Below are positions 12,651-64,000 of a stretch of DNA of 64,000 nt, in pieces. The notes below the pieces were generated by a model that was not told the origin of the DNA, ran no database searches, and saw nothing but the letters and a program-made list of their open reading frames with translations. The position numbers were made by a program, and so were the translations under genes. Location of the stretch: positions 4,945 through 68,944 of the forward strand of contig JABHSO010000199.1 of the NCBI GenBank assembly GCA_018669845.1, in the 5' to 3' direction. The DNA comes from Gammaproteobacteria bacterium (GTDB lineage Bacteria > Pseudomonadota > Gammaproteobacteria > GCA-001735895). Within the stretch, counting starts at the first letter, position 1. Each line of letters opens with the position of its first letter.

Positions 12651-12672
12651 CTTAATCTGTTAGAATTTAATT

Positions 12673-25139: not shown

Positions 25140-25140
25140 T

Positions 25141-41932: not shown

Positions 41933-41941
41933 GATGAGCCC

Positions 41942-42940: not shown

Positions 42941-42969
42941 TTTTATAACTCTTTCCTGGTAAGGTAGCG

Positions 42970-44226: not shown

Positions 44227-44228
44227 GA

Positions 44229-50245: not shown

Positions 50246-50590
50246 TTAATTACATTGATTAAGCATCAGGTAGTTTAATCGACGAAGATAATCCGGCTTG
50301 CTTTCATCCTGTTTCATGGGGTGCAGGAATAGTAATTTGGCTGCAATCATGGTTTGTCTGCGGTGTTCATTCTGAATGCTGGCTTCATCATCCAGTAATT
50401 TTGATAGTTGACGTAATGCCTGCTGCGGGTCTTTGCAAAAACGGGGCAGAGTTACATTACTGGCATACCACTGGGCCATCAGTGATACAGACAGTAGTGC
50501 AATTAAAACAGGGATAATAACTTTAAGGGGATTGAAAGGCGGTTTGATTTGCTCTTCAATCTGATCTTGTTGCTGAGCCTGTTGATTCAT
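50246..50590 (-). CDS. small single-pass membrane protein, unknown function
   Basis: ATG at 50588-50590 forms an ATGA overlap with the upstream stop. Translation MNQQAQQQDQ..., one TM helix (VIIPVLIALLSVSLMAQW). The longer ORF-track start lies inside the upstream gene. Confidence 0.5.
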   Translation of the reverse strand: MNQQAQQQDQIEEQIKPPFNPLKVIIPVLIALLSVSLMAQWYASNVTLPRFCKDPQQALRQLSKLLDDEASIQNEHRRQTMIAAKLLFLHPMKQDESKPDYLRRLNYLMLNQCN

Positions 50591-52005: not shown

Positions 52006-53300
52006 GGATTTTCACCTGATTCTGAATCTGAATTGGTGACCGTTTGGGGGCGTTTCCAGGGTAGATTATTACCAAAACGTTTAGCTGAAAGTTGCTGCAT
52101 ATGAGCAATGGTGATTAATTCTTCACCCAGATCCAGAACATAAGTTTCTGTTCTCTTTTTAACCATGTTACGAATGAAGCCGGGAATACGGTTAAGTTTT
52201 TTGCTGGCATCATCTGACCAGATTAAATTTGCAGTTTCAAAATCAGTAACAGGTTCGATAATGTCACCATGGTGAGGAATATAACCACAGGATGTATCTT
52301 CATCCATCAGTTGTTTGCCTGCTGCGAGTGGCCTGGCGCGACAACCTCCACACAGTTTTTGAAACTCACACTCTCCGCATTTTCCGGTTAACTGCGGGTT
52401 TCTTAGCGAGAGGAAATCTTCAGCGGTATTCCAGATGGTTTGAAAATCCTGTTGTTTGATATTGCCGACAGTTTTTTCGATATACGGGCAGGCAGTTACA
52501 TCACCTTCGGGTGTTACACGACAATAATGAGTGCCAGCGATACAGCCATCGCCTTCCTGCCCACTGATTCGATTAAGAGCAGATTCGGGAGCCATTTGCC
52601 AGGCCACTCTTTTGAAATAGGGCGCACAACGAGGACGAATTATCAGGTTTTCATATTTGTTCTGACATTCGATGATTTTTTTGATGCCTGCTTCATAATT
52701 GACAGTAGAAATATTACCGACCGATTCGGCACGTCCTGTACAGATAATGAAAAAGAAATTAACCACTCTGGCACCGGACATTTCGGCGAAGTTAATAATA
52801 TCTTCAATTTCGTGGTGGTTATCATCAGTAATGGAAAAATGTATTTGAAAATCCAGCTGGTGTTTGCGGCAGTGTTCAATGCCTGACATGGTTTTCAACC
52901 AGCTTCCAGTTTGCCCTCTGAAAGCATCATGACGAGCAGGATCAAGTGAGTCGACACTGATACCAATGCCCATAGCACCTGCATTTTTAAGAGAGATAAC
53001 ACGACGTTCGGTAAGCAAAGCACCATTACTGCCGATGACAACCATTAGTCCGAGTGATTTACCGTGGCTACAAAGCTGTTCCAGATCTGTTCTAATCAAA
53101 GGCTCACCACCGGTTAGAACAATCATGGTGCCTTCATGGTGTTGGGCTATTTGATCGAGCAGATCTTTTACATCCTGAGTTGATAATTCATTTGCAGAAG
53201 GTGTGTTTAGTTCATCAGCATCCAGATAACAATGCTCGCAGGAAAGGTTACACCGTCTGGTCAGGTTGATTGCAATAATCTGGAGTTGATTAGTGTCCAT
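52002..53300 (-). CDS. NirJ/AhbC/AhbD-type radical SAM (SPASM) enzyme with a C-terminal PCP_red-like module
   Basis: CNLSCEHCY radical SAM cluster, FFFIICTGR, RCAPYFKR, GCIAGTHYCRVTPEGDVTACP and CGECEFQKLCGGCRAR (SPASM). Residues ~361-405, WSDDASKKLNRIPGFIRNMVKKRTETYV, match the BchB C-terminal domain motif. Confidence 0.8.
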   Translation of the reverse strand: MDTNQLQIIAINLTRRCNLSCEHCYLDADELNTPSANELSTQDVKDLLDQIAQHHEGTMIVLTGGEPLIRTDLEQLCSHGKSLGLMVVIGSNGALLTERRVISLKNAGAMGIGISVDSLDPARHDAFRGQTGSWLKTMSGIEHCRKHQLDFQIHFSITDDNHHEIEDIINFAEMSGARVVNFFFIICTGRAESVGNISTVNYEAGIKKIIECQNKYENLIIRPRCAPYFKRVAWQMAPESALNRISGQEGDGCIAGTHYCRVTPEGDVTACPYIEKTVGNIKQQDFQTIWNTAEDFLSLRNPQLTGKCGECEFQKLCGGCRARPLAAGKQLMDEDTSCGYIPHHGDIIEPVTDFETANLIWSDDASKKLNRIPGFIRNMVKKRTETYVLDLGEELITIAHMQQLSAKRFGNNLPWKRPQTVTNSDSESGENP

Positions 53301-53317
53301 CGTCTAAAAGATTTTCT

Positions 53318-53405
53318 CACCGCAAAGGACGCTAAGGTACGCAGAGGAAACCAACATTAAATTGTTTTGTTTTTCCTTTGCGAACCTTAGCGTCCTCTGC
53401 GGTAA
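53318..53405. repeat. REP-like family C inverted repeat (CGCAGAGGA-type sub-repeats)
   Basis: tcaccgcaaaggacgctaaggtacgcagaggaa and its inverted partner ttcctttgcgaaccttagcgtcctctgcggtaa: about 31-bp arms with 3 mismatches. Lies between the Usp/PCP_red gene and the radical SAM gene. Confidence 0.85.
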
Positions 53406-53421
53406 AAATGGTTTTTTACAG

Positions 53422-55548
53422 TTAAGCATTATTCCTCGGATCATCTGGATCCAGGTGAAATTGCTTGCTTTGGCTCCATTTGCCTTTAATGGCTTCGACT
53501 ATTTCCAGGGTAATTTCAGTTTTGTTGTTTTGGTTCGCCCAGGTTTCTATCTCATGCACTAATATGCCTCTCACCATGTCCGGGGCATTGGCAATGCTGT
53601 CTCTGGCATCTTGTTGCCAGTCGAGAGTTTCAACGACTTTAGCGGAGCCTTTCTGGAAAGTTTCCAGAGTAGACTTAATGAACTCTTTGTCTATTGACGG
53701 TAAGCCCATTTTACTGGCGATTGTTTCCATTGCATTAACGGTCATGTCTCGGCAGTAACCTTCAGGAACATTGTTTAATAATTTTTTACTGCCTTGTAGC
53801 CATTCTACTGTTGAAGCTGTTTCTTCCTGTTCCAGAGTCATTCCTGCAAACGGGCATTTACTGGCTTTTTTCGGAGCTGGCTTTTCCCCGCTTTTTACCT
53901 GTTGTTCCATGGCCAGACGAGATATTTCCAGACCCTTTTCGGCTACTTCGAGAGATATGCTGGTGATGTTGTTGTCAGTGGCATAACTTTCAATATTTCT
54001 TTTTGCCGCATCTCGCATAAATCCTTCGGGTGCACGCATCAGTCTGGCTATGGCAGCTGTTTCCCAACGTAAGTGTTCATTGTTTTGCTGTTGAACAAAG
54101 GTTTTAATATGTTGTGTGTCGACCTGAAAGGTTTTATCGGCACGGGCTTTTTTCTCTGCCCGACCTTTAATATTCTCTCTTAATGATGGGTCAGTTATTG
54201 ATTGTAATAACTCTTCTGCTTCACCTGTCCAGGTCATGGGTTTCGTAGTGACAGAAGTTTTAAGCTCACCACGGTCAGCAGCTTCGACGATTTCCTGTAT
54301 GGCATTTTCTGCATGACCTGGCATCAGCTCGGCTGTGGCGGCTTCTACAATACTTTCGGTGATGACGGTATGACCTTTTTCCTGGGCATAGCGTAATATC
54401 GCCATTTTGGCCATAGGGCGGACAAAAACGGGGACTTTTAACATACGTTTCTCTGCTTCAACTGACCAGGACGTGGTTGCCGCAGCGATTCTTTCAATAC
54501 GGGGTTGATGCTCCTGCATGCCGAGCAAAATGGAGCAATTGATATTGCGCAATAAATTTTCGGCATTGCCGCCTATATCCAGTTCCGGATCGGCGTGTAT
54601 CCCCAGTTTTCCAATAATCAGTAATGATGCATTGACCTCGGCTACATATTTTTCAATAGCATCGTAGGCTTTACCATCGAGTAATTTAGTGTCAATGCTA
54701 ATGCCATAATCTTCAGCAATGGATTCAGCAACATCAAGATGTCCCTGATAAATTTTAGCCAGACCTGAATCGATAATGTCTTCGTGCAGTTTTTCCTGTT
54801 CCTTGAATTTGAAAACCTTTCCGGCTTCTTCTGATAGTACGTCGGCAATTTTATTAAAGGCGACATAGTGATAATAAGGATCGAAGGTTGAAATAACCTT
54901 GAGTTCTACGTTCCATTGTTGTGATAGTGAAAATGCGCTGAGCAGGGCACCATAGGATTTTCTGGAGCCATCGATTGCAACGACGATGGGACCTTTACTG
55001 ATTAATTTTTGTGGCTGCTTAATGACCAGTGTATCAATATTTGTTCTGCGCACTGTCCTGTCACAAACGGTACCTATCCGGCTTCCTTCTATAGCACCGA
55101 CACCAATAGAACCTAAAATCAGCAGATCATAATCACCTTTGTTGGCTTCATTCACTAAAGCGCGGTAGTTTTTTCCTTCGAGAGATGAACGGTAAAATTC
55201 TATGCTCTCCAGGTGACACTGTTTATCAATTTGATCCAGATAAGATTCGGTGATGATCGACAAGCCCCGGGTGATCAAGTCATCATGAACTTCGCGTTGG
55301 TGTTCCAGTTCCTGTTCAACTCTATATTGTTCGGGTAAACCACCTTCCATTTGACGAAAACGTATATCATGCATTTTGGCTGCGTAGGCATGAGTTCCCG
55401 TTATTTTACTGCCCCAGGCTTTTGCCAGCTGGACTGATTCCACTATGGCCTGGTTAGAATGATCGGATGAATCTACAGCTACCAGAATAGACTGGTATCG
55501 GGTTAATGGGTCGAGGGATTCATCTTGTTGAGGTGCTGTAGCCGTCAT
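53422..55548 (-). CDS. two universal-stress-protein (Usp) domains followed by five PCP_red-like (BchB C-terminal) modules
   Basis: Usp-like blocks at ILVAVDSSDHS...LLILGS and IVVAIDGSRKS...LLIIGK. Five repeats begin at W361, W440, W495, W583 and W644 with the pattern W-x2-(E/D)-A-x3-L-x3-P-x3-R. Confidence 0.75.
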   Translation of the reverse strand: MTATAPQQDESLDPLTRYQSILVAVDSSDHSNQAIVESVQLAKAWGSKITGTHAYAAKMHDIRFRQMEGGLPEQYRVEQELEHQREVHDDLITRGLSIITESYLDQIDKQCHLESIEFYRSSLEGKNYRALVNEANKGDYDLLILGSIGVGAIEGSRIGTVCDRTVRRTNIDTLVIKQPQKLISKGPIVVAIDGSRKSYGALLSAFSLSQQWNVELKVISTFDPYYHYVAFNKIADVLSEEAGKVFKFKEQEKLHEDIIDSGLAKIYQGHLDVAESIAEDYGISIDTKLLDGKAYDAIEKYVAEVNASLLIIGKLGIHADPELDIGGNAENLLRNINCSILLGMQEHQPRIERIAAATTSWSVEAEKRMLKVPVFVRPMAKMAILRYAQEKGHTVITESIVEAATAELMPGHAENAIQEIVEAADRGELKTSVTTKPMTWTGEAEELLQSITDPSLRENIKGRAEKKARADKTFQVDTQHIKTFVQQQNNEHLRWETAAIARLMRAPEGFMRDAAKRNIESYATDNNITSISLEVAEKGLEISRLAMEQQVKSGEKPAPKKASKCPFAGMTLEQEETASTVEWLQGSKKLLNNVPEGYCRDMTVNAMETIASKMGLPSIDKEFIKSTLETFQKGSAKVVETLDWQQDARDSIANAPDMVRGILVHEIETWANQNNKTEITLEIVEAIKGKWSQSKQFHLDPDDPRNNA

Positions 55549-55590: not shown

Positions 55591-55710
55591 TTAACCAAAT
55601 AAAACCCAGTATCCAAAAAGATAGGTAATTACCAGAATATTGATTGCAGCACCGGCAAAAACAAAATAATCAAAACCTGTCAGGTTCTGTAACCACTTAA
55701 ATTGAGTCAT
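55591..55710 (-). CDS. possible 39-aa single-TM peptide
   Basis: MTQFKWLQNLTGFDYFVFAGAAINILVITYLFGYWVLFG, located 42 nt upstream of the Usp/PCP_red gene. No clear Shine-Dalgarno sequence. Below the ORF-track cut-off. Confidence 0.25.
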   Translation of the reverse strand: MTQFKWLQNLTGFDYFVFAGAAINILVITYLFGYWVLFG

Positions 55711-55816: not shown

Positions 55817-56557
55817 TTATTTCTTTTTAAACATAAAATCAACAGTTTGGGAATCTCCCCCTGCTATTGTTGCTTTACCTTTTTGAGTTCCGAGAGTTCC
55901 GTGGAAAGCTCTTACTTTATATTTTCCGGCTGGAATATTGTCAATGGTGTAACTTCCATCGTCAGCTACTTGTGCGTAGTAAGGGTTTTTTGCAACGAAT
56001 ACAAAACCGTGCATGAAATCATGGGCGTCACATTCGATTTTCATGCCCACACCACGTTTAAGTTTGATTTTTTTGTTGATGGTGCCTTTATCGGGTTGAC
56101 TGATATTCATTACAGTCTTTTTCGCTTTACCGATAATTTCATAGCTGTGGATATTATGCAGTACGGGATCTTCATTGATGATGGCCGCATTGCCTTCGTT
56201 GTGCATGATTTGCATGTAAGGCAGAAATTCACAACCTTGCTGTAAAATTTTAGAGTCTGAATTCGCCTCATTAAATGCTTTACCTTGCTTTACTTTATCC
56301 AGGTAAACAACGACGTCAGTTAAAGCTCCGCCGTTAACTCTTACGTAATCTATTTCGCGGTTACCCGTTCCACAAACGTCGTTATCTTTTGAAATTTTGA
56401 ATACCAAAGGAGAGGGATCTTTACCCGTGAATGATACTTTACCGGAAATGCTTCCTCCGTTGGCAACGTCAACAACTTTATATTTTGCAGCCAGTACAGC
56501 CGGGCTAGTGCTTATGGCCAAAGTGAGGCCTGCGATTATAGATAGATTTTTAAACAT
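55817..56557 (-). CDS. periplasmic amicyanin-like type-1 copper (cupredoxin) protein with flanking beta-sandwich domains
   Basis: Signal peptide ending VLA-AK. Copper-ligand contexts PVLHNIHSY and IECDAHDFMHG (C-x2-H-x2-M) parallel amicyanin MPHNVHF and HCTPHPFM. C-terminal DDGSYTIDNIPAGKYKVRAF is a carboxypeptidase-regulatory-like fold. Confidence 0.65.
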   Translation of the reverse strand: MFKNLSIIAGLTLAISTSPAVLAAKYKVVDVANGGSISGKVSFTGKDPSPLVFKISKDNDVCGTGNREIDYVRVNGGALTDVVVYLDKVKQGKAFNEANSDSKILQQGCEFLPYMQIMHNEGNAAIINEDPVLHNIHSYEIIGKAKKTVMNISQPDKGTINKKIKLKRGVGMKIECDAHDFMHGFVFVAKNPYYAQVADDGSYTIDNIPAGKYKVRAFHGTLGTQKGKATIAGGDSQTVDFMFKKK

Positions 56558-56590: not shown

Positions 56591-59026
56591 TTATGATGCT
56601 TCTGCTAGTGGAACAGTTCGGTACATTTCTTCAAGCATTTCAATAGCAAATCGTCTTTCATAGCTTGTGGGTAAGTCAGAGAGTAACTCAACCAACCTTG
56701 CCGTACCCTGAACAGGTTCGATGGCTTTTAGAACCAATGCCATGTCACGTGTTCTGCCACCCTGATTATTAAAAGGGCATTGAACAATTTGCTCTATAGC
56801 TTTCGCCATTAATTCCTGTTGCTGATTAATTTCTTCTGCCATGAGACAGAGTTTAAGATTGTTTACTGCACTATAACGAACGCCTGGATCTTTGTCCTGA
56901 AGCAGGTCGATTAAAACATTGACCCATTCGGTCAGGTTTATTGGCATTTCAGGAACATGTGCATTTTTAAGCAGTTCGTCGCCGTTTAACTCTAGCTCGG
57001 TAATGGATTCTATTGCCTGGATGCGAATCGCTGTGCGATTATGCTCGAAGGCGGTCATTAAAATGGGTATGGCAGCCCTGTTATGAATTGTGCCCAGAGC
57101 CTTGATGCAAGCAAGTTTCAAATCCCATTGCTCATTATGGAATTGGGTGATCAGGCCGCCGTAAGCATATTCGATACCGCCAATTTTGGGATTATCCATG
57201 GCTATTTGTGCAATAGAATCGGCAGCATAGGTACTAAGCTTTATGTCAGCTGAGTTCAGTGCTGTGACCAGGCTATCAACAGTCCGTTTTGCTTTGTCTT
57301 CATTCAAATGGTCAGGCAGTTTTGCAAGTATTTTTGCAGCCAGATGTTGTACATCCTGGGCCACGGAGATTTCTTCATTTTTGTTTTTAAACAGCCATTC
57401 ACTTTTAGTGACATTATCCTGTACAAGATTATGAAATTCCTGCATCTCGGGATCTTCTTCGGTTTCTGGCTCTGCCTGATTTTCCTGTTGCTGCTGGTTT
57501 TGTTCAACAAACAGACTATCCTGCATGATTGATTCCAGAGTCGATAATGCTTCAGCCGGTGCAGCTTCTTCTACTGATTCATCCTCAGTTGCAGATTGTT
57601 CTGTATCTTCTGATGTGTTTTCAGTCTGCTCGGGCAATAAAGAAGATACTTCAATTTCCAGAACCACACGGCCATTTAAAGTCTCGTTGATGATATCTAT
57701 CGGTGTTTTAACTTGAGTCGAATCTAACTCTGTATGTTCGATACTTTTTTCCATGTCCATCAGTGCCTGCAAGGTTGTAAGCCTGATGGGTTGATCGTTA
57801 TGATTAATCAAACGGGTCATTATTCGAGATATATTGACGTTCCATCTGGATATCTGTGCCAAAGTACTGATGCAGGTTCTAAGGATTTTTTCTGAGATTT
57901 TAGGTCTTGATATAAGTTGTATCAGGCTCGCTTCTGAAGATTCTTTATTCGTTAATTTCAGTAATAAAGGTATTGCAGCGAGGATCACTATTTCATTTTG
58001 GTCATTAAATGCTGTAGTGATATGGTCCAGCAATTCTTCATCACTGAGATTGACGTCTTCAGCCTGTAGAGATTGTAAATAGGTCGATCTAACATCTGCG
58101 TCTGGATCGTTAAGTAAACGCTCATTTCCCTTGTCATCGGTTTTTTCCGATTTAACACCAGCACTCAGAGAGTTATAAGCAATAATTGCGGCTTGACGTA
58201 CTTTTTCAGAACGATCTTTTTTTAATAACTCAATGGCTGGCAGGTATTTGGTTGCCTTTCTTGTCACCATGGCCTGCAGTGCATAAAGACGAACATCTTC
58301 AGATGCATCGGTAAAAGCTGAGGATAATGCTTTTAATGATTTTTTAGTGGAGGAAAATGATAATGCGTAAGCGGCTCTTCTTCGTGTAAGAGCAGATGCT
58401 TCTTTCAAAAGCCCAGTGACTCTTTGTTCTCCCTCTTCTCCAATATTGACCAGTGCATTGAGAATGACATGTTCAATATCGAGAACATCATCACTTTCGA
58501 GTAAATTCATTAATACCTGAGTGGCCGGCTGTGCTTTCATTTTACCCAGAGCCAGTACAGCTTCTTTCTGCATATCCCACCAGTCATCCCAGTCTTCATT
58601 GCTATCAATAATCATATCTTCAGGATGATGCTCGGCAATTTCTATCAGAATGGGGATACTGGTAGGGCTTTTTATATCACCCAGTGCTTTAACGATAGCT
58701 GTTTTCAACTCTCCATCAGGGTCATTCTTTAATGACTCTATCAATTGGGGCACGACATGAGTGGCATTTAACTTACCCAGTGCTTCTGCTGCATCGATAC
58801 AGACATCAATATCTTCATCCCGTAATTTTATGACAAGATCATTAATGGCTTCAGTTGCACCAATGGTGCCTAGAGCGCGGCTGGCATTACATTTATCGAC
58901 TTCATCGCCATTGTTTAACAAATCTCGTAAGCTGTGAACGACATTAGCTCTTGACTCATTTGACGTTTCGATAGAACTATCTGAATTTGTTGTATCGATA
59001 GAGCTATCTGTATCTGCTGTTAACAC
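56591..59026 (-). CDS. large cytoplasmic HEAT-repeat (PBS-lyase-type) protein with an acidic central linker
   Basis: GTG start. Recurrent ~30-aa repeats of the type D-x-D-V-R-x-x-A-x-x-A-L-G. Acidic Glu/Gln-rich insert near residues 455-530. Confidence 0.7.
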   Translation of the reverse strand: MLTADTDSSIDTTNSDSSIETSNESRANVVHSLRDLLNNGDEVDKCNASRALGTIGATEAINDLVIKLRDEDIDVCIDAAEALGKLNATHVVPQLIESLKNDPDGELKTAIVKALGDIKSPTSIPILIEIAEHHPEDMIIDSNEDWDDWWDMQKEAVLALGKMKAQPATQVLMNLLESDDVLDIEHVILNALVNIGEEGEQRVTGLLKEASALTRRRAAYALSFSSTKKSLKALSSAFTDASEDVRLYALQAMVTRKATKYLPAIELLKKDRSEKVRQAAIIAYNSLSAGVKSEKTDDKGNERLLNDPDADVRSTYLQSLQAEDVNLSDEELLDHITTAFNDQNEIVILAAIPLLLKLTNKESSEASLIQLISRPKISEKILRTCISTLAQISRWNVNISRIMTRLINHNDQPIRLTTLQALMDMEKSIEHTELDSTQVKTPIDIINETLNGRVVLEIEVSSLLPEQTENTSEDTEQSATEDESVEEAAPAEALSTLESIMQDSLFVEQNQQQQENQAEPETEEDPEMQEFHNLVQDNVTKSEWLFKNKNEEISVAQDVQHLAAKILAKLPDHLNEDKAKRTVDSLVTALNSADIKLSTYAADSIAQIAMDNPKIGGIEYAYGGLITQFHNEQWDLKLACIKALGTIHNRAAIPILMTAFEHNRTAIRIQAIESITELELNGDELLKNAHVPEMPINLTEWVNVLIDLLQDKDPGVRYSAVNNLKLCLMAEEINQQQELMAKAIEQIVQCPFNNQGGRTRDMALVLKAIEPVQGTARLVELLSDLPTSYERRFAIEMLEEMYRTVPLAEAS

Positions 59027-59076: not shown

Positions 59077-59164
59077 ATAAAAAGTTGTTACTAATTAACT
59101 CATTGAAAGATAGGATATTAATTGCATTTTACAGGTTCGGTTTTGCGTTGGCGTATGTGTTCAA

Positions 59165-59279
59165 TTGAATGAATTGTTCTATTCATTTTGAACGTAAATT
59201 ACAGTTGAACAAAACGTTCAATTTATAAGGGTGGCATGATTTGATCAGCTGAATTGGGCATTTTGAACATTTCGTTAAT
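59165..59279. promoter_or_regulatory. three 6-N5-6 inverted repeats (TTGAAC-N5-GTTCAA), candidate enhancer-binding-protein sites
   Basis: TTGAATgaattGTTCTA (59165-59181), a perfect TTGAACaaaacGTTCAA (59205-59221) and TTGAACatttcGTTAAT (59263-59279). All lie between the two divergent sigma-54 promoters. Confidence 0.55.
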
Positions 59280-59413: not shown

Positions 59414-59430
59414 TGGCAAGAAAATTGCAT
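59414..59430 (+). promoter_or_regulatory. sigma-54 (-24/-12) promoter for the bd-like/cytochrome c operon
   Basis: TGGCAA GAAAA TTGCAT: near-consensus spacing and elements, 31 nt upstream of the ATG at 59461. Confidence 0.7.
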
Positions 59431-59460: not shown

Positions 59461-59622
59461 ATGTCTGATATAGAAAACGAAGCGCAAACAACTGGGCAGA
59501 ATGCTGGTGTTAATGAATCAGTAACCTGGGGTCCCAAATTGTTTTATGGCGTTCTTATCGCTGTATTAGTGTTTTTCTGGTGGATGGTGATTTATCCACA
59601 CGGTGTAGCTCCAACTCATTAA
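59461..59622 (+). CDS. 53-aa single-TM peptide, first gene of the bd-like operon
   Basis: AGGAAA Shine-Dalgarno 5 nt before the ATG. Translation MSDIENEAQTTGQNAGVNESVTWGPKLFYGVLIAVLVFFWWMVIYPHGVAPTH. Below the ORF-track cut-off. Confidence 0.55.
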   Translation: MSDIENEAQTTGQNAGVNESVTWGPKLFYGVLIAVLVFFWWMVIYPHGVAPTH

Positions 59623-59770
59623 GGCGATCTGGTTCAGATAATTATAAATAAATGAACACATGAGCAATAAATGGGACTTTTAGATCCGGTATTGAATAAC
59701 TAAGGTCCCAATTTAATCATTTTTTAACGCTGATATCGCTTAAAAGTATGCAACAGAAGGTACAAACAAA

Positions 59771-59905
59771 ATGAATATGAAAAATCCTCTGATTAACTGG
59801 GTTCTCGCTATTGTGATAGTCGTAGCAGTATTTTATGGGCTAAACCACGGGGTGATGTCGATGCAGGGCTTGCCATTAAATGTTGATTTAACGCCTGTTC
59901 AATAA
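59771..59905 (+). CDS. 44-aa single-TM peptide
   Basis: MNMKNPLINWVLAIVIVVAVFYGLNHGVMSMQGLPLNVDLTPVQ. GAAGG upstream. Ends 20 nt before the CydA-like gene. Confidence 0.5.
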   Translation: MNMKNPLINWVLAIVIVVAVFYGLNHGVMSMQGLPLNVDLTPVQ

Positions 59906-59925
59906 GGGTCACCTAAGGTAACACT

Positions 59926-61812
59926 ATGAATTCAGATATATTAAATAAGAATAAAATCAGGGTTATTCTGAGCCTGTTATTTGCTCTGATGTTGGCAGGC
60001 ATGATTTCTGTGTCGGTATCGAATGAGGTTTATGCCGCTTCAGAAATAACAAGTATCGAAGATAGAATCCGCTCTGTAGATACGGGTGGTCTGTCGGCTG
60101 ATCAATTTAAAGTCGAACCGAAGTCTGTTGGTTTTCCTCCTTTTGCAGCACCAAAATTAAAAGCCAAAGATTACTCTAAAATTATGGGTGTAAGCAGTCG
60201 TTCAATAGTCTGGGTTGTGGCTCAGATGCACCTGTTTTTTGCTGCATTCGTACTGGCCGTTCCACTTTTTGTACTGGTCATTGAATGGATTGGTGCGAAG
60301 TCGGGCGATGAGCGTTATGACGATATGGCGCATGAATGCATGAAAATCAGTATGACTGCATTTTCTATTACGGCTATTTTTGGTGGTTTACTGGCCTTTG
60401 CATTGTTCATTCTGTATCCGCAGTTTATGGGATATATGATGAATGTTTTTAATACTCAGGTGCTGGTGTATGCACTGTTATTTTTTGCCGAGAGTTTTTT
60501 CCTTTACCTCTATTATTACAGCTGGTATGCCTACCGCTGGGGCAACAAAAAATGGGTACATCTGACTCTGGGTTTAATGCTGAATGTAGTTGGAACGACT
60601 ATTTTATTACTGGCTAATGCCTGGGTCACTTTCATGATGGCTCCTACCGGAGTGGATGATGCGGGTGCGGTTACCGGTGGTATCTGGGAAATAATGAGAG
60701 GGCCTCTCTGGAATCCCATCAACTTACATCGATTCATTGCTAATATTGCTTTTGGTGGTGCTGTTATCGGTGCATATGCTGCCTACAAATTTCTTTCTGC
60801 AACTGATCTTAAAGCCAGGGCGCATTATGACTGGATGGGCTACACCGCCAATTTCATTGCTATTTTAGCATTCTTACCGTTGCCTTTTGCCGGTTACTGG
60901 TTGATGGCTGAAATTTATGCTTATTCCCAGCAAATGGGTATTACTGCGATGGGTGGAATACTGGCCTGGTTGTTTATTGTACAGGCAGTGTTGATTGGCA
61001 CTATTTTACTGGCTGGTAATTATTACCTGTGGTCGGGCATGTCGAGAACGAAAGGGTCTGAGCGATATACCTGGATGATCAAATATATCGCGATGGTGCT
61101 AGTAACCTGCTTTCTGATCTGGGTGACACCTCACACGTTGATTTTGAGCGCTTCGGAAATGAAATTGCTGGGCGGTAGCCATCATCATTTGCTTGGACCC
61201 CTGGGCATTATGCCGGCTAAAAATATTGCGGTTAATCTGATGTTAATTTTTACTTTTCTTTCTTTTCAATTATACCGGAGATCAGATAAAGAAATCACTG
61301 TGGGTTGGGCAGGTTTTGGTAATGCATTGATGGTGAGCATTTATGTTGTTGCAATTGTTAATGTCATTTTTGCTGGTGTGTATTACGGCTATTTCACCAA
61401 TACGGTTTATAAGGTGGGTTCCAGTGTGGCCCAGGTCGTTTCAACGTTGGTGGTTATTATTGCAGGTGTTGTTATCGATACCTATATGTTTAAGGGTGCG
61501 AAAAAGTTGCCGTCTGAATGGGGAAAAGTTTCTAACCGGGCTCAATATGCATTATTTGCATTACCTGTTGCTTTCACCTGGTTGATGGCACTGATGGGTT
61601 ATGTACGTTCTTCGGTCAGAACCAACTGGCATGTGTACACGGTGATGAAAGATAACTCTCCAGATAATTATATTCCGGCCATAGGCTTTGCAGGCAATAT
61701 GATGACTATCGTGACGGTGTTGTTCCTTATATTTGTATTGTTTATTTTCTGGGTGGCATCTTTAAGTGATACAAAGCAGCCTAAACCTGATTTTCTGACG
61801 GGAGATAAATAA
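59926..61812 (+). CDS. cytochrome bd oxidase subunit I (CydA)-superfamily membrane protein, atypical (no CydB partner)
   Basis: Blocks collinear with E. coli CydA as I recall it: AQMHLFFAAFVLAVPLF (vs MYHFLFVPLTLG), LLFFAESFFLYLYYYSW (vs MAFFLESTFVGLFFFGW), LLLANAWVTFMMAPTG (vs WILVANGWMQNP), WNPINLHRFIANIAFGG (vs LNPVAQVKFVHTVASG). It also has an N-terminal signal-like peptide and extra C-terminal TM helices. Confidence 0.75.
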   Translation: MNSDILNKNKIRVILSLLFALMLAGMISVSVSNEVYAASEITSIEDRIRSVDTGGLSADQFKVEPKSVGFPPFAAPKLKAKDYSKIMGVSSRSIVWVVAQMHLFFAAFVLAVPLFVLVIEWIGAKSGDERYDDMAHECMKISMTAFSITAIFGGLLAFALFILYPQFMGYMMNVFNTQVLVYALLFFAESFFLYLYYYSWYAYRWGNKKWVHLTLGLMLNVVGTTILLLANAWVTFMMAPTGVDDAGAVTGGIWEIMRGPLWNPINLHRFIANIAFGGAVIGAYAAYKFLSATDLKARAHYDWMGYTANFIAILAFLPLPFAGYWLMAEIYAYSQQMGITAMGGILAWLFIVQAVLIGTILLAGNYYLWSGMSRTKGSERYTWMIKYIAMVLVTCFLIWVTPHTLILSASEMKLLGGSHHHLLGPLGIMPAKNIAVNLMLIFTFLSFQLYRRSDKEITVGWAGFGNALMVSIYVVAIVNVIFAGVYYGYFTNTVYKVGSSVAQVVSTLVVIIAGVVIDTYMFKGAKKLPSEWGKVSNRAQYALFALPVAFTWLMALMGYVRSSVRTNWHVYTVMKDNSPDNYIPAIGFAGNMMTIVTVLFLIFVLFIFWVASLSDTKQPKPDFLTGDK

Positions 61813-62678
61813 TGAATCTCAGCATCAGAAAAGTCCAGTCCGGTGCAGTTTTATTCAATGTTTTACTGTTCAGTTTTTCTTTAACCCTGGTGTTTACGCT
61901 GGTTGCTAATTTACTGCCCCAGGTTGAAGGTGAAGCACCGGTCGAAGTAGAAATAGATCTGAGTGCAATGACTATGGATGGTTTTGTGTCACTCGGAGAA
62001 AGTATTTTTTCCGGTAAAGGAACCTGTACGTTATGCCATAACAACATGGGACGGGCGCCTGATATTTTACAGTTAAATATGGTTGCTACTTCAACCGAGC
62101 GCATGGCTGATGAACGTTATAAGGGAGCCGCTGCTTCTGTTGAAGACTACATGCGCGAATCAATGCTCGATCCTAGTTTGTATGTAGTAAAAGGTTTTGG
62201 GCAGAAGGGCAGCAACGATACTGTTTCACCCATGCCGACGGCAAATAAAGCGCCTATCCTATTAACCGATGTTGAAATGGATGCTGTTATTGCTTTTATG
62301 CAAGCTAAAGATGGCAATGATGTCACCGTTGCCTTACCGGAAGGTTTGCCTGAAAAATCAGCAGAAGAACAGGCAGGGGCTTCTGCTGTAGCAGCTGTAC
62401 AAGGACCGGCTGAAACGGCCGAAGAAGCTTTAGGAAAATTTACCTGTACAGCATGTCATGCAGTAGCTGGTAGTGAATCAATGGTGGGTCCAGAGTTAAA
62501 TGCAGTCGGTAATCGGCTGGATAAAGATAAAATCCGTGAGAGTATTCTTAACCCTGAAGCGGTGATTGCTGAGGGTTTTGATGCAGGCATGATGCCGGCA
62601 GATTTTGCAAAGAAAATGACAATAAGCGAGCTGGACATGGTTACCGAGTACTTACTCAATCAAAAGGGAGGGCAATAA
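61812..62678 (+). CDS. membrane-anchored dihaem cytochrome c
   Basis: N-terminal TM helix and two CxxCH motifs (CTLCH, CTACH). The ATG overlaps the CydA-like stop by 1 nt. Confidence 0.8.
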   Translation: MNLSIRKVQSGAVLFNVLLFSFSLTLVFTLVANLLPQVEGEAPVEVEIDLSAMTMDGFVSLGESIFSGKGTCTLCHNNMGRAPDILQLNMVATSTERMADERYKGAAASVEDYMRESMLDPSLYVVKGFGQKGSNDTVSPMPTANKAPILLTDVEMDAVIAFMQAKDGNDVTVALPEGLPEKSAEEQAGASAVAAVQGPAETAEEALGKFTCTACHAVAGSESMVGPELNAVGNRLDKDKIRESILNPEAVIAEGFDAGMMPADFAKKMTISELDMVTEYLLNQKGGQ

Positions 62679-62680
62679 TC

Positions 62681-64000
62681 ATGCGTATCCCTGCGTTATT
62701 ACAGGCCGTTCTGGTTATCGTCATTGCCTATCTGATTTTAGATAATGCATTTCCACCTGTTTTACCTTTAACACTATTGATTCAATATATGCTGATCACT
62801 GTGGTCGGTGTGTTGTTGTACTTTTCTTTTGATGATGATCGTTGGGCTGAGTTTTTATCACCGATTCAAGCTGTTTTACGTAATGATAATCAATGGCTCT
62901 TACGTGGATTTTTCCTGGTAGCTATTCCAGTTCTTGTCGGCTGGGTTACTTTTCAGATGGTCAAACCATCACTCGATTCGCCTATCGAACTGCGTCAGGT
63001 ACATCCGGCACCACCCTCCAGTCTGAACGTTTTTAATAAAAAATATGATTTAACTAAACTGGAAAACCCTATTCGTGCTGAAGTTATAGAAAAATACCCA
63101 ACCGATAAAGATGGCGCCATGCAGGTTTATAATGACGGCGTGTTAGCGGGCAGGGATGTTTATTATCAGAACTGTTTTTATTGTCATGGTGATTTACTCG
63201 ATGGCACAGGACATTTTGCCGATGGTTTTACCAATCCTTTGCCGATCAATTTTCAGGATGTTGGAACGATAGCGCAGTTACAGGAAGCCTTTTTATTCTG
63301 GCGTATCTCTACCGGTGGACCTGGATTGCCAAAAGAAGGAACACCATGGAATTCAGCTATGCCAGTCTGGCATGAATACCTGAATGAAGATGATATATGG
63401 AATGTAATTACTTTCCTGTATGACTATGTTGGGCAGGTACCCAGAATCTGGGATCAGAAACAGTCAAAAATTGCTTCTGCCATTAAAGATGATCTGGTTT
63501 CTAAACGTGCCACTATGATGGGTAAGGAATTGTATGATTTACGTTGTACTGTTTGTCATGGCGATCAGGGCATGGCCGATGGTGTTGCAGCAGAGCGTAT
63601 GTATCCAAAACCACGTGATTTTACGTTGGGATTATTTAAGTACAAAACCACACCGGGCTCGCTGCCAGCGAGTGACGATGACCTGTTCAATACCATTAAA
63701 CATGGATTGATGGCGACAGGCATGCCAGGCTGGAGCAGTTTATTGTCAGATGAACAGATAAAAAGTCTGATACCCGTACTCAAAGGTTTTGATATTGCAT
63801 CGACCTGGCCCCCTGAAGATGCTGATGATGATGCTTTCGATGACGATGGACGATATACCAAAGATGATTTTATTTCGATTACCGAACGTGAACCATTTGA
63901 AGGTGCCGTCGATTACACTCCTGAGTCATTAACTCGAGGCAAAGAAGTTTTTGATAAAGCCTGTAAAGAATGTCACGGAGCTACAGGGCGAGGCAATATT
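62681..64000 (+). CDS. membrane-anchored multihaem cytochrome c (at least three haems; 3' end beyond the window)
   Basis: GGGAGGG Shine-Dalgarno before the ATG at 62681. Open frame to the window edge (not in the ORF track because there is no stop). About three N-terminal TM helices, then CFYCH, CTVCH and CKECH. Confidence 0.8.
   Translation, partial: MRIPALLQAVLVIVIAYLILDNAFPPVLPLTLLIQYMLITVVGVLLYFSFDDDRWAEFLSPIQAVLRNDNQWLLRGFFLVAIPVLVGWVTFQMVKPSLDSPIELRQVHPAPPSSLNVFNKKYDLTKLENPIRAEVIEKYPTDKDGAMQVYNDGVLAGRDVYYQNCFYCHGDLLDGTGHFADGFTNPLPINFQDVGTIAQLQEAFLFWRISTGGPGLPKEGTPWNSAMPVWHEYLNEDDIWNVITFLYDYVGQVPRIWDQKQSKIASAIKDDLVSKRATMMGKELYDLRCTVCHGDQGMADGVAAERMYPKPRDFTLGLFKYKTTPGSLPASDDDLFNTIKHGLMATGMPGWSSLLSDEQIKSLIPVLKGFDIASTWPPEDADDDAFDDDGRYTKDDFISITEREPFEGAVDYTPESLTRGKEVFDKACKECHGATGRGNI

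Follow-up and report, generated by a model that had tools for sequence, protein, structure and literature searches.

The closest described systems belong to the OR-N2 subfamily of the cytochrome bd superfamily, for which a residue signature has been defined (Murali et al. 2021, bioRxiv 10.1101/2021.01.16.426971). Nitrospira, Nitrospina and Kuenenia carry the same system as a 'bd-like oxidase + two cytochromes c + alternative NxrC' cluster, and Ca. Manganitrophus as its terminal-oxidase complex TO_1. In the literature, OR-N enzymes are taken to be oxygen reductases that oxidise cytochrome c, and in some Nitrospirales they are the only candidate terminal oxidase. In both Nitrospira moscoviensis and Ca. 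Manganitrophus the genes of the orthologous clusters rank among those with the highest expression. To date no OR-N family member has been purified, and papers from 2024-2025 still term the family uncharacterised, in agreement with the original prediction for the locus described here, according to which bd-like proteins associated with cytochromes c had been noted bioinformatically (in Nitrospira and in surveys) and lacked characterisation.

The locus lies in a 64,000-nucleotide stretch of DNA (the window) from an uncultured marine gammaproteobacterium. All of the predicted ORFs between positions 59461 and 64000 were found on the + strand, as five densely spaced genes:

59461 to 59622, + strand: pep53, a 53-amino acid single-helix micro-peptide, probable small subunit (ORF, synteny, codon divergence)
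59771 to 59905, + strand: pep44, a 44-amino acid single-helix micro-peptide, probable small subunit (ORF, synteny, codon divergence)
59926 to 61812, + strand: 628-amino acid CydA-like protein of the OR-N2 subfamily (Pfam, AlphaFold2, Foldseek, invariant residues)
61812 to 62678, + strand: 288-amino acid dihaem cytochrome c with one N-terminal membrane anchor (CXXCH motifs, Pfam)
62681 to 64000, + strand: first 440 residues of an 800-amino acid fusion protein, the third cytochrome (identical contig, CXXCH, Pfam)

The predicted coupling of the bd-like gene to the two cytochrome genes was evident in a TAATG overlap, formed by the stop of the 628-amino acid gene and the start of the 288-amino acid gene, and in a gap of 2 nt between the stop of the latter and the start of the fifth ORF, which exits the window at position 64000 and whose full length was read from an identical contig (L001:12756-15158). 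The absence of CydB also held: the downstream sequence on identical contigs contains no CydB gene, a second cydA-like gene is likewise absent, and a terminator-like hairpin is located 20 nt past the stop of the 800-amino acid gene. The five-gene arrangement is not due to chance, as the identical order was found again in dozens of genomes.

The locus very probably encodes an OR-N2-type cytochrome bd-like respiratory complex without CydB or a quinol site. Its catalytic subunit would be the CydA-like protein, joined by the dihaem cytochrome c, the trihaem-c/haem-b fusion and the two single-helix peptides to give five subunits in all. The 628-amino acid protein carries the OR-N2 reference residue pattern, which places it in this branch of the superfamily, and is 55-59% identical to proteins of the Nitrospirota/Nitrospinota clusters; this kind of enzyme is therefore already known from genomics, and the locus represents a new example with new accessory genes rather than a new kind of enzyme. 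New here are the coding peptides conserved across phyla, a putative sigma-54 promoter, a conserved set of neighbouring genes extending from a cupredoxin to a kinase and regulator, and orthologous operons in cultured Sedimenticola and Aestuariirhabdus. Unlike the OR-N2 loci of Nitrospira, Nitrospina and Kuenenia, the operon resides in a marine gammaproteobacterial host and has no nitrite oxidoreductase gene nearby.

The CydA-like subunit and its haem sites

The predicted likeness to the helix blocks of CydA was borne out by a match to Pfam Cyt_bd_oxida_I (E=1.3e-19) and by matches to the solved CydA chains 5doq_A and 9r2g_A (E ~1e-9). As residues 91-345 matched profile positions 2-251 of 418, only the N-terminal half of the profile is represented. 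The ten best Foldseek matches in the PDB to an AlphaFold2 model of moderate confidence only (pLDDT 70, pTM 0.72) were all CydA. CydA homology was thus shown for the N-terminal half of the protein, and the model predicts a CydA fold over the entire chain.

The protein begins with a signal-peptide-like segment ending in a predicted VYA/AS site, as originally described, and a comparable n-region, h-region and AxA-like site recur in homologues from several phyla. It is followed by a linker of ~50 residues, accounting for the extra N-terminal residues that had been noted, and then by ~13 membrane helices; the protein has four helices more than CydA. The extra helices had been placed at the C-terminus; they exist, but two of them stand in place of the Q-loop, a region in which neither the Pfam profile nor the alignments gave any match to CydA.

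Alignment with E. coli CydA confirmed that the haem-ligating histidines are conserved, His102 (in QMHLFF) corresponding to His19 and His268 (in NLHRF) to His186. The glutamate of FFAES is likewise conserved, but this residue (Glu189) aligns with Glu107 and not, as had been suggested, with Glu99, whose position is occupied by Tyr182; the Glu445 position is Ser in the OR-N2 family. Among 79 cross-phylum sequences H102, E120, E137, Y182, E189, Y196, Y198, H212, H268, R269, E329, H420, M429, N433, W568 and H569 were invariant, so that the equivalents of His19, His126, His186 and Glu107, together with Met429, are retained in at least six phyla. A Nitrospirota homologue matched the OR-N2 reference numbering exactly at 10 of 11 positions, and Met430, Asn434 and Trp569 (OR-N2 numbering) are kept here. 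The C-terminal ligand assignments (Met429, Ser562, Trp568) are taken from the published curated alignment and from conservation, the alignments made here giving them no support.

The subunit therefore shares with canonical cytochrome bd (E. coli CydABX, Geobacillus thermodenitrificans CydAB(S), mycobacterial CydAB) the CydA fold, with its four-helix bundle and helix 5, the equivalents of His19, His186, His126 and Glu107, and an operon that includes single-helix accessory peptides. It differs in the loss of CydB, the Q-loop and the quinol-binding residues, in the replacement of Glu99 and Glu445, in the signal-peptide-like N-terminus with its ~50-residue periplasmic extension, in the four additional helices, and in electron input that presumably comes from c-haems. 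Given that both replacements (Glu99 to Tyr, Glu445 to Ser) affect active-site residues, the number and type of haems in the complex may differ from those of canonical bd. It agrees with the OR-N2 subfamily in having 14 hydrophobic helices, no Q-loop, no CydB and the retained and replaced residues listed above, and in an operon that encodes several cytochromes c together with a haem-b protein resembling EbdC. Members of the OR-C family are also in the bd superfamily, also lack the quinol site and are also presumed to use cytochrome c as donor; they have 8 helices, a CXXCH inside CydA and a paired OR-C1b subunit, whereas the translation of the 628-amino acid protein contains no CXXCH, its helices number ~13-14 and its cytochromes are separate subunits.

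The most likely function of the complex, held with about even confidence, is that of an oxygen reductase fed by cytochrome c or cupredoxin. Occurrence of the orthologous cluster in strictly anaerobic anammox bacteria, and of relatives in Thermodesulfobacteriota MAGs, agrees poorly with an oxygen-respiring role. The two replaced active-site glutamates, the basis of the C-terminal ligand assignments, the modest pLDDT of the model and an oxygen-sensitive 2-oxoacid:ferredoxin oxidoreductase also encoded in the window were counted against it as well. The same occurrence in anaerobes favours a quinone-reactive cytochrome c:quinone oxidoreductase resembling alternative complex III, without oxygen reduction, which would pass electrons between a periplasmic c-haem/cupredoxin pool and quinones, either forward or in pmf-driven reverse. 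Such a role has been suggested before for the orthologous cluster as it occurs in Nitrospina, Nitrospira and anammox bacteria, and could use a new quinone site in the four helices beyond CydA or in the three-helix domain of the trihaem subunit. It is considered an appreciable but unlikely alternative: the canonical quinol-site residues are all missing and no alternative site has been identified, the invariant equivalents of His19, Glu107 and His126 are residues of the bd oxygen site and proton channel that a plain electron relay would not need, and sulfur-oxidising Gammaproteobacteria normally possess bc1 for the cytochrome c/quinone step.

The remodelled active site, in which Tyr and Ser replace the two glutamates and His420 and His569 are additional invariant residues, would also suit reduction of another oxidant (nitric oxide, nitrite, peroxide or chlorite) with cytochrome c electrons, for respiration or protection, in hosts whose habitats are interfaces rich in nitrite, NO or sulfide. 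Most representatives of the family come from nitrite oxidisers, anammox bacteria and sulfur oxidisers that denitrify, and the gene island of related locus L084 contains two MauG/cytochrome c peroxidase-like genes. This reading is improbable, as there is no direct evidence for it, no denitrification genes lie beside the operon within the window, and Nitrospirales with no other oxidase respire oxygen, which argues for OR-N as the oxidase.

Cytochrome subunits and micro-peptides

The 288-amino acid protein is a membrane-bound dihaem cytochrome c as predicted, with CXXCH at residues 72 and 212, a single hydrophobic segment (8-36) and Pfam matches to Cytochrom_C and Cytochrome_CBB3; its gene was syntenic in 79 loci. 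For the last gene a cytochrome with at least three haems and a three-helix anchor had been predicted; both the anchor and CXXCH at 165, 289 and 428 are present in the part within the window, but the description was incomplete. The full protein, with hydrophobic segments at ~1-51, 71-95 and 769-794, consists of three N-terminal helices, three c-haem domains, an EbdC/NxrC-type haem-b domain (Pfam EB_dh, E=2.4e-20; NCBIfam DMSO_red_II_gam, E=1e-19) and a C-terminal anchor forming a fourth helix, the last two being encoded past position 64000. Trihaem cytochrome c and haem-b protein are thus fused into a single chain here; in most Nitrospirota, Nitrospinota and 'Delta' loci, by contrast, the haem-b-domain protein has ~500-560 amino acids and two c-haem motifs.

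The c-haem domains of the operon match Cytochrome_CBB3/CcoP-type models, and the complex resembles the cbb3-type oxidases (CcoNOP), which are likewise found in microaerophiles, in being a membrane complex fed by membrane-anchored mono- and dihaem cytochromes c. The catalytic subunits are unrelated, with a haem-copper site in cbb3, which pumps protons and is sensitive to sulfide, and a bd-type site here.

The homology of the EB_dh domain to EbdC and NxrC raises a further alternative, in which the complex serves as membrane anchor and electron outlet for a periplasmic enzyme of the type II DMSO-reductase family (e.g. nitrite oxidoreductase) docking on the haem-b domain. The cluster sits with nxr genes in Nitrospira, Nitrospina and Kuenenia, where this role has been proposed, and the L084 island contains a Rieske/molybdopterin enzyme. 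It is nevertheless the least probable of the readings considered: no molybdopterin gene is present in the 10 kb to each side of the bd-like gene on the contig of the window, in the 10 kb around the radical SAM gene (see below) in L085, or in the stretch of L086 covered by the analysis, and the family is widespread in lineages without known nitrite oxidation. Moreover, the Met and Lys haem ligands of EbdC/NxrC are replaced, with His at the Met position in 38 of 57 sequences and Lys or Arg at the Lys position, after which 46 of the 57 have a conserved His.

Documentation of the two upstream peptides is a further difference from the known OR-N2 clusters. Syntenic homologues of pep53 (motif G-x-x-LF...FFWWLLIY-x-HGV...H) were found at 54 loci, distributed over Gamma-, Alpha- and Betaproteobacteria as well as Nitrospirota and Nitrospinota, and those of pep44 (motif FYG(L/I)D-x-x-(I/V)M-x-x-QGLP(L/V)N) in 40 loci (Gamma-, Alphaproteobacteria and one betaproteobacterial MAG). 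Divergence at codon positions 1/2/3 was 0.40/0.32/0.58 for pep53, a coding pattern, and 0.42/0.27/0.60 for pep44. They had been likened to CydX/CydH; conservation and coding were upheld, but neither gave a Pfam or NCBIfam match, the CydX and CydH families included, and they are at best analogues of these subunits. Both are probable small subunits of the bd-like complex.

Proposed electron and proton pathway

In the preferred reading as an oxygen reductase, periplasmic donors (cytochrome c, the neighbouring cupredoxin or sulfur-oxidation enzymes) would deliver electrons to the five c-haems and the EB_dh haem b. From there the electrons would move to a b558-like haem with His268 and Met429 as ligands, and finally to the buried haem site of His102 for the reduction of oxygen. 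Protons from the cytoplasm would travel via Glu120, Glu137, Glu189, His212 and Tyr182, so that charge separation would conserve energy. The place of CydB may be taken jointly by the additional helices, the membrane anchors of the cytochromes and the two peptides. Sulfide and nitric oxide are both tolerated by canonical bd oxidases; since a bd-type site contains no copper, the complex should likewise tolerate these poisons of haem-copper oxidases, a property that would suit sulfur oxidisers and nitrite oxidisers alike.

Promoter and divergent neighbouring genes

A promoter-like element precedes the operon and a divergent set of genes lies on the opposite strand:

59414 to 59429, + strand: sigma-54 type -24/-12 promoter element TGGCAAGAAAATTGCA, 31 nt upstream of the pep53 gene
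56591 to 59026, - strand: 811-amino acid HEAT-repeat protein, first gene of the divergent unit (Pfam)
55817 to 56557, - strand: 246-amino acid secreted cupredoxin fused to a CarboxypepD_reg-like beta-sandwich (ligands, AlphaFold2, Foldseek)
55591 to 55710, - strand: pep39, a 39-amino acid single-helix micro-peptide (synteny, codon divergence)
53422 to 55548, - strand: 708-amino acid protein with two Usp and three PCP_red (BchB C-terminal) domains (Pfam)
52002 to 53300, - strand: 432-amino acid AhbD/NirJ-type radical SAM/SPASM enzyme with C-terminal PCP_red (NCBIfam, Pfam)
50587 to 52005, - strand: 472-amino acid HemY-type FAD oxidase, protoporphyrinogen/coproporphyrinogen oxidase family (NCBIfam)
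50246 to 50590, - strand: 114-amino acid protein with one hydrophobic segment (gene call in L001)
47291 to 50233, - strand: 980-amino acid sensor histidine kinase with several PAS domains (Pfam)
45808 to 47235, - strand: 475-amino acid NtrC-type sigma-54-dependent response regulator (Pfam)

The papers on OR-N2 clusters consulted here make no mention of this promoter or set of neighbours. The element at 59414 was the single match to TGGCA-N6-TTGCW in the window, which is not significant alone, as 42 of 100 shuffles yielded at least one match. Of 82 related loci, 29 have the pattern TGGC-N7-(T/C)TGC within 900 nt 5' of the bd-like gene (background rate 0.10 per kb per strand), mostly just ahead of the first peptide gene, and the operon is probably transcribed from such a sigma-54 promoter. 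The NtrC-type regulator (Response_reg; Sigma54_activat, E=5.5e-69; HTH_8) fits this assignment. The kinase (HK_sensor_dom_bact, three PAS, HisKA, HATPase_c) occupies the equivalent place in L084-L086, its homologues adjoin the operon in the alphaproteobacterial loci L035, L040 and L055, and the regulator is paired with it in all six; the pair probably controls the operon.

A cupredoxin, mentioned as a potential donor in the original prediction, is encoded by the 246-amino acid gene. Its invariant H134, C176, H179 and M182 form a type-1 copper ligand set with C-x2-H-x2-M spacing, and the top Foldseek matches to its AlphaFold2 model (pLDDT 86) were pseudoazurin, plastocyanin and amicyanin (probability 1.00); hhalign against amicyanin gave P=0.004 with the four ligands in register. 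With homologues adjoining the operon in 28 loci, one Nitrospinota MAG included, it is a candidate electron donor or carrier. The HEAT-repeat gene (HEAT_2, E=9e-46; HEAT_PBS, E=5e-20) occupies the equivalent place in most gammaproteobacterial loci (25-32% identity; 64% in L004) and in L085.

In 37 of 83 loci, from Gamma-, Alpha- and Betaproteobacteria and Thermodesulfobacteriota, the Usp-PCP_red gene (Usp, E=6e-30; PCP_red, E=2e-37 over three stretches) adjoins the operon, in three differing arrangements. The radical SAM gene always adjoins the Usp-PCP_red gene, and its product matched Radical_SAM, SPASM and PCP_red in Pfam, and NirJ2 (E=1e-91, 308 bits) and AhbD haem b synthase (E=2.5e-82, 277 bits) in NCBIfam, both below the cutoff of 500. 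The HemY-like gene (TIGR00562 proto_IX_ox, 254.7 bits; cutoff 97.85) directly follows it in the window and in L031, L032, L084, L085 and L086. The AhbD-like, HemY-like and PCP_red neighbours may provide or tailor the haems of the complex.

Two small genes complete the set. The 114-amino acid protein had no Pfam or NCBIfam match, and a 111-amino acid gene occupies its place in L085. In 23 loci the pep39 gene (motif FDY...G..IN..VI...GYWL; codon-position divergence 0.46/0.31/0.63) is retained with the cupredoxin gene on one side and the Usp gene on the other; it is annotated as a gene in L002 and L085.

Operon structure and cytochrome subunits

Five open reading frames (ORFs) are packed on the forward strand at the 3' end of the window, as follows.

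59461-59622, forward strand: micro-peptide of 53 amino acids (pep53)
59771-59905, forward strand: micro-peptide of 44 amino acids (pep44)
59926-61812, forward strand: bd-like protein of 628 amino acids
61812-62678, forward strand: dihaem cytochrome c of 288 amino acids
from 62681 past the window end, forward strand: third cytochrome (800 amino acids on identical contigs)

A Shine-Dalgarno-like, purine-rich stretch can be read 5' of each of the five start codons. The stop codon of the 628-amino acid ORF overlaps the start codon of the 288-amino acid ORF (TAATG), and the stop codon of the latter is separated by two bases from the start of the third cytochrome. An identical 628-amino acid protein was found on three public contigs (from NCBI MAG GCA_963978975.1, a JGI metagenome and an ENA metagenome). 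On identical contigs, followed for 10 kb past the window, the 800-amino acid gene is followed, 20 nt after its stop codon, by a hairpin (17-bp stem), and the only genes beyond the hairpin are GGDEF/HD signalling genes, which rules out a CydB or a second CydA downstream. Within 10 kb either side of the bd-like gene, no gene product matched cytochrome bd subunit II, and the bd-like gene alone matched Cyt_bd_oxida_I. The original prediction of a CydB-less bd-like protein coupled to c cytochromes was therefore correct: the packed ORFs, the CydA-family match and the anchored multihaem cytochromes are all real, and no CydB follows where the window ends.

Two CXXCH motifs and a single hydrophobic anchor were found in the 288-amino acid protein, and the third cytochrome has three N-terminal helices and three CXXCH motifs, in agreement with the dihaem cytochrome c and the following cytochrome with at least three haems and a three-helix anchor that had been proposed. 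Beyond its c-haem domains the 800-amino acid protein (L001:12756-15158, on a contig identical to the window locus) carries an EB_dh domain and then a C-terminal helix. The domain was identified with PF09459 (E = 2.4e-20; 74 bits, cutoff 33.3) and is matched by the EbdC chain 2ivf_C (E = 1.5e-6); TIGR03477 scored 70.7 bits on the protein, under its cutoff of 169.85. EB_dh is the haem-b module of EbdC and NxrC, and the two positions compared were those of Met and Lys, which we take to be the axial ligands of the EbdC haem b. The Met position is occupied by His655 (His in 38, Met in 9 and Gln in 6 of 57) and the Lys position by Lys752 (Lys in 29 and Arg in 24 of 57), with the adjoining His753 conserved in 46 of 57. 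The Met/Lys ligands of EbdC and NxrC are thus not kept in the window-type domain, which suggests bis-His ligation (His/Met in some lineages) of a putative haem; as the ligands differ, its redox potential and role may differ also. In the related locus L086 (L086:1-7525) cytochrome c and EB_dh genes occur twice, flanking the bd-like gene on both sides, and the c-haem and EB_dh parts are spread over several genes, not fused.

The bd-like protein and its assignment to OR-N2

The N-terminal half of the 628-amino acid protein (residues 91-345) matches profile positions 2-251 of the 418 in PF01654 (E = 1.3e-19; 70.6 bits, cutoff 26.2), and solved CydA chains from Geobacillus and Mycobacterium smegmatis match it with E values of about 1e-9 to 1e-12. 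There was no NCBIfam model for the protein, for which 183 representatives were retrieved at E ≤ 1e-30 from a representative library of 1.84 billion proteins. An AlphaFold2 model built with 32 homologues was of moderate confidence (pLDDT 70, pTM 0.72); its ten best Foldseek matches in the PDB were all CydA (probability 1.00, target-normalised TM-score 0.42-0.58), with CydB chains far behind. The family match, the CydA fold and the presence of an equivalent of E. coli His19, reported to be retained by every cydA paralogue, place the protein in the cytochrome bd superfamily.

Ligand equivalences were taken from an ungapped stretch of the alignment with Geobacillus CydA (offset of 81 residues) and are given in E. 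coli numbering. His102 corresponds to His21 of Geobacillus CydA and thus to His19, Glu189 (the Glu of FFAES) to Glu107, His212 to His126 and, in the alignment with 9r2g_A, His268 to His186. Conservation was assessed in 79 homologues from species genomes of Gamma-, Alpha- and Betaproteobacteria, 'Deltaproteobacteria', Thermodesulfobacteriota, Nitrospirota and Nitrospinota. It was found that His102, Glu120, Glu137, Tyr182, Glu189, Tyr196, Tyr198, His212, His268, Arg269, Glu329, His420, Met429, Asn433, Trp568 and His569 are invariant in all 79, and that Ser562, at the position of Glu445 according to the OR-N2 reference table (an assignment that depends on the published alignment), is kept in 78. 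The candidate haem-ligating residues named in the original prediction, including the equivalents of His19 and His186, are therefore present and conserved; Glu99, listed along with them, is not, its position being taken by Tyr182.

No counterpart of the Q-loop was found: the family-model and PDB alignments end before it, and hydrophobic helices fill the region. The literature likewise reports the bd-like family to be without the quinol-binding residues of the Q-loop. Neither the single sequence nor a 32-sequence profile could be aligned with solved CydA in the C-terminal half, both covering helices 1-6 only, and the equivalents of Met393, Glu445 and Trp441 consequently rest on the published table together with conservation.

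Hydropathy analysis gave one N-terminal segment resembling a signal or anchor, followed by 13 membrane segments; the AlphaFold2 model shows 14 helices after the N-terminal one because a Pro-Leu-Pro kink splits helix 6. Lys/Arg-rich loops, which mark the cytoplasmic side, were read after helices 3, 5, 7, 9 and 11 and in the C-terminal tail, and loop counts show the excess most clearly after helix 11. This fits a predicted topology with a periplasmic N-terminus and a cytoplasmic C-terminus, as in CydA. Homologues from several phyla share a positive n-region, a hydrophobic core and an AxA-like site, followed by a variable acidic linker, and a PAPKL..DYP motif just before helix 1 is conserved across phyla; the N-terminus fits a predicted cleavable signal peptide.

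In the division of the bd superfamily into qOR, OR-C and OR-N by Murali, Gennis and Hemp (bioRxiv 10.1101/2021.01.16.426971), OR-N2 is described as having 14 helices and no quinol site, and as being often the sole cydA-like gene of an operon that also encodes an EbdC homologue and multiple cytochromes c. The OR-N2 reference residues given by these authors (Y183, E190, Y197, Y199, H213, H269, M430/N434, S563 and W569) recur in the window protein at each number minus one (Y182, E189, Y196, Y198, H212, H268, M429, N433, S562 and W568), and a 58% identical Nitrospirota protein (locus L056) carries the signature residues at the exact published positions. Only H99 of the table is off-register, the corresponding His lying at position 103 in L056, and this is taken as a numbering difference. 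The N-terminal signal/anchor helix and the 13 segments make up the 14 predicted helices, and the operon encodes a dihaem cytochrome c and a trihaem cytochrome c fused to EB_dh, with no second cydA-like gene. Nitrospirota and Nitrospinota proteins in equal operon context are 55-59% identical.

The window protein differs from the canonical qOR1-4a enzymes, in which a Q-loop between helices 6 and 7 holds quinol-binding residues, a CydB or CydA' partner is encoded alongside, and Glu99 and Glu445 lie at the haem site, where the window protein has Tyr182 and Ser562. It also differs from OR-C, in which a CXXCH motif lies within a CydA-like polypeptide of 8 helices, as its translation has about 13-14 helices and no CXXCH. 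The locus is therefore very probably an OR-N2 complex and not a new kind of system. As papers from 2024 and 2025 still describe the OR-N family as uncharacterised, and a literature search returned no biochemical or structural work on bd-like or OR-N enzymes, it is a new member of a kind so far described from genomics only. The cluster has been known in Nitrospira, Nitrospina and Kuenenia since 2010-2013 as a 'bd-like oxidase + two cytochromes c + alternative NxrC', together with cupredoxin-like proteins, and the equivalent cluster of Ca. Manganitrophus was named complex TO_1.

Micro-peptides, regulation and the divergent gene set

Syntenic homologues of pep53 were identified in 54 loci, including Nitrospirota, Nitrospinota and a Burkholderiales MAG, with one conserved helix ending FFWWLLIY-x-HGV...H. 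Those of pep44 were found in 40 loci, from Gamma- and Alphaproteobacteria and one Betaproteobacterial (Burkholderiales) MAG, with the motif FYG(L/I)D-x-x-(I/V)M-x-x-QGLP(L/V)N. In both, codon position 3 showed the greatest and position 2 the smallest pairwise divergence, as expected of translated genes. Neither had a Pfam or NCBIfam match at E ≤ 0.01. The resemblance to CydX and CydH that had been suggested holds in so far as a single operon-encoded helix is common to both peptides and to CydX, CydH (YnhF) and CydS; it is one of kind and not of descent, neither peptide matching a known small-subunit family.

The sequence TGGCA-N6-TTGCW occurs once in the window, at 59414-59429, 31 nt 5' of the pep53 gene. 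Such a count is not significant alone, and the putative sigma-54 element carries weight because of its conserved position only: 29 of 82 loci have a matching -24/-12 element within 900 nt 5' of the bd-like gene, in most cases immediately 5' of the first peptide gene, against a background rate of 0.10 per kb per strand. In the divergent intergenic region, at 59163-59223 and about 200 nt 5' of the sigma-54 promoter, lies an imperfect inverted repeat of 17 nt (AATTGAATGAATTGTTC ... GAACAAAACGTTCAATT), a candidate binding site for the activator. Upstream of the operon the following genes lie on the opposite strand, a set conserved in most of the gammaproteobacterial loci.

56591-59026, reverse strand: HEAT-repeat protein
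55817-56557, reverse strand: secreted cupredoxin of 246 amino acids (from ligand set and predicted fold)
55591-55710, reverse strand: micro-peptide of 39 amino acids (pep39), one helix, between the cupredoxin and Usp genes
53422-55548, reverse strand: protein with two Usp and three PCP_red domains
52002-53300, reverse strand: radical SAM/SPASM enzyme with a PCP_red tail, 432 amino acids
50587-52005, reverse strand: HemY-type oxidase
50246-50590, reverse strand: protein of 114 amino acids, one hydrophobic segment, no family match, between the HemY-like and kinase genes
47291-50233, reverse strand: multi-PAS histidine kinase
45808-47235, reverse strand: NtrC-type sigma-54 activator

Taken with the adjacent activator and PAS kinase, the promoter element indicates that expression of the operon is probably signal-dependent and sigma-54-driven. 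The third micro-peptide, pep39, was found in 23 loci with the motif FDY...G..IN..VI...GYWL and a coding-type codon divergence. A gene for a 111-amino acid protein occupies the position of the 114-amino acid gene in the Thiolapillus locus L085.

The 246-amino acid protein had no match to the PDB by sequence, and with hhalign plastocyanin and azurin were not significant and only amicyanin gave P = 0.004; its identity was settled by structure prediction. The model (pLDDT 86) matched pseudoazurin, plastocyanin and amicyanin in Foldseek (probability 1.00), and His134, Cys176, His179 and Met182 are invariant with amicyanin-like spacing; the protein is, judging by its modelled fold, a cupredoxin. On one metagenome contig (L084:747-7225) the cupredoxin homologue and the HEAT gene are separated by an insertion of four genes, encoding a Rieske subunit, a molybdopterin subunit with Rieske_3 (arsenite-oxidase-like by domain content) and two MauG/cytochrome c peroxidase-like proteins; these may be a periplasmic donor enzyme feeding the bd-like chain.

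The three genes at 50587-55548 (reverse strand), for the protein with Usp and three PCP_red domains, the radical SAM/SPASM enzyme and the HemY-type oxidase, all have tetrapyrrole-related homologies. The radical SAM enzyme scored 308 bits with NirJ2 (E = 1e-91) and 277 bits with AhbD (E = 2.5e-82), both under the cutoff of 500, and on these scores is best regarded not as an orthologue but as an AhbD/NirJ-related paralogue that carries a PCP_red domain in addition. The HemY-type oxidase passed the protoporphyrinogen-oxidase model (254.7 bits, cutoff 97.85). A literature search returned nothing on a PCP_red radical SAM protein. In Ca. Thiodiazotropha and Thiolapillus (records P0309, P0315, P0344, P0358 and others; L085:10001-12016) this protein is about 670-680 amino acids long compared to about 430, giving roughly 250 extra residues.

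Of 83 loci, 37 (in Gamma-, Alpha- and Betaproteobacteria and Thermodesulfobacteriota) have the Usp-PCP_red and radical SAM pair next to the bd-like operon. Three arrangements occur, with the pair upstream and divergent, or downstream and on either the same or the opposite strand. When the search was reversed and started from three radical SAM homologues, all three contexts (L084-L086) held the cassette together with bd-like operon genes or the cupredoxin/HEAT neighbours. No such pair was seen in the loci of Rhodobacteraceae and Hyphomicrobiales, or in those of Nitrospirota and Nitrospinota, which are mostly short. The link between cassette and operon is thus frequent, not universal. As the cassette stays with the operon and has tetrapyrrole-related homologies, a dedicated haem supply or tailoring for the complex is suggested.

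Distribution and possible function

A one-genome-per-species collection was scanned with two conserved peptide patterns, giving at least 592 confirmed stretches with the bd-like protein, at 51 to 82% identity to that of the window. Carriers include Thiomargarita, Ca. Thiodiazotropha, Thiotrichaceae, Chromatiales, Motiliproteus, MAGs of Rhodobacteraceae and Hyphomicrobiales, and the cultured Sedimenticola hydrogenitrophicus SB48 and SN1189 and Aestuariirhabdus sp. LZHN29. Further homologues were identified in Ca. Venteria, Ca. Kentrum and Ca. Parabeggiatoa, and cupredoxin homologues in tubeworm symbionts. A literature search found no report of the operon in sulfur-oxidising Gammaproteobacteria, symbiont papers speaking only of "cytochrome bd ubiquinol oxidase"; such reports may include OR-N2-type genes. 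Public records (P0005, P0006, P0042, P0056 and others) are named 'cytochrome ubiquinol oxidase subunit I' or 'cytochrome bd-type quinol oxidase subunit 1', names which are misleading for a family without a quinol site and CydB, and which mislead metabolic reconstructions of symbionts and low-oxygen-zone bacteria.

The EB_dh domain could suggest that the complex is the dedicated membrane anchor of a nitrite oxidoreductase. The gamma subunits of type II DMSO reductases are encoded with molybdopterin alpha and beta subunits, unlike the EB_dh protein of the window: no molybdopterin gene was found within 10 kb either side of the bd-like gene on the contig of the window, nor in the stretches of L085 and L086 that were covered, which argues that the complex is not tied to a nitrite oxidoreductase in these organisms. 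The idea is weakened further because the window operon recurs widely, at 55-82% identity, among sulfur-oxidising and other Proteobacteria, cultured strains among them, and the idea was rejected as the main reading for this organism.

The subunit inventory, the conserved ligand set and the lack of a quinol site and of CydB are established from sequence, and the c-haem and haem-b domains and the cupredoxin are placed in the periplasm. Electrons would enter via the five c-haems and the EB_dh haem and pass to a b558-like haem at His268/Met429 and then to a catalytic haem at His102, and protons would be delivered by way of conserved acidic, His and Tyr residues in helices 1-4. As the invariant residues are those of the bd oxygen site and proton channel, a proton-consuming reductase is favoured over a passive electron relay.

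OR-N enzymes are reported to be the only candidate oxidase in some Nitrospirales and orthologous clusters to be very highly expressed, and oxygen is for these reasons the most probable substrate. A quinone module, as proposed for the orthologous cluster, is a serious rival, since that cluster occurs in anammox bacteria with relatives in Thermodesulfobacteriota MAGs, Glu99 and Glu445 are replaced in the OR-N2-type protein, and the oxidase role is itself deduced. For a complex acting as an oxidase, the concentration of the family in sulfur and nitrite oxidisers would be explained by a copper-free site that tolerates sulfide and NO, as canonical bd oxidases do; this is a possible rationale for its distribution.

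Nitrospira and Nitrospina, the organisms behind most of the Earth's nitrite oxidation, are hard to grow and manipulate, and the bd-like enzymes of the OR-N family are presumed to be their terminal oxidases; to our knowledge, no OR-N member has been purified. The present analysis adds a complete operon, conserved micro-peptides, a cupredoxin, a predicted sigma-54 regulon, a linked haem-enzyme cassette and orthologous operons in cultured bacteria. The cultured carriers make OR-N function testable, and the micro-peptides, cupredoxin and cassette are candidates for missing subunits, electron donor and cofactor maturation, respectively. A joint reading, to which we give a rather low probability, is that the 19 kb from 45808 to about 65083 form one sigma-54-controlled respiratory island complete in itself, three hitherto unrecognised micro-peptides included, encoding a copper-free oxidase insensitive to sulfide and NO with cytochrome c and the dedicated cupredoxin as donors. 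The AhbD/NirJ-like enzyme, HemY-like oxidase and PCP_red proteins would then make or deliver a tailored tetrapyrrole for the bd-like active site. If true, this would give the OR-N oxidases, globally important enzymes of nitrifiers, a defined cofactor pathway and tractable model organisms (Sedimenticola, Aestuariirhabdus).

Other genes of the window were also noted. The region 40286-45618 encodes 2-oxoacid:ferredoxin oxidoreductase components (POR_N, PFOR_II, TPP_enzyme_C and POR subunits), together with a polyferredoxin and an associated FAD/NAD(P) oxidoreductase that has Fe-S domains; as enzymes of the former type are oxygen-sensitive, this points to a microaerobic or anaerobic lifestyle of the host. 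An operon at 22129-25704 has genes for a glutamate-synthase-like Fe-S flavoprotein and for complex I subunits of the 49-kDa and 30-kDa types. It continues to about 31941, with several long ORFs adjoining, and may encode a group 4 hydrogenase-like or other energy-converting complex. Many signalling genes lie on both sides of the 19-kb region (8067-18156 and L001:16024-20604), among them genes for hemerythrin-domain proteins (one in fusion with a hybrid histidine kinase), for GGDEF/EAL fusions with a Tll0287-like sensor domain, and for several further GGDEF or EAL proteins.
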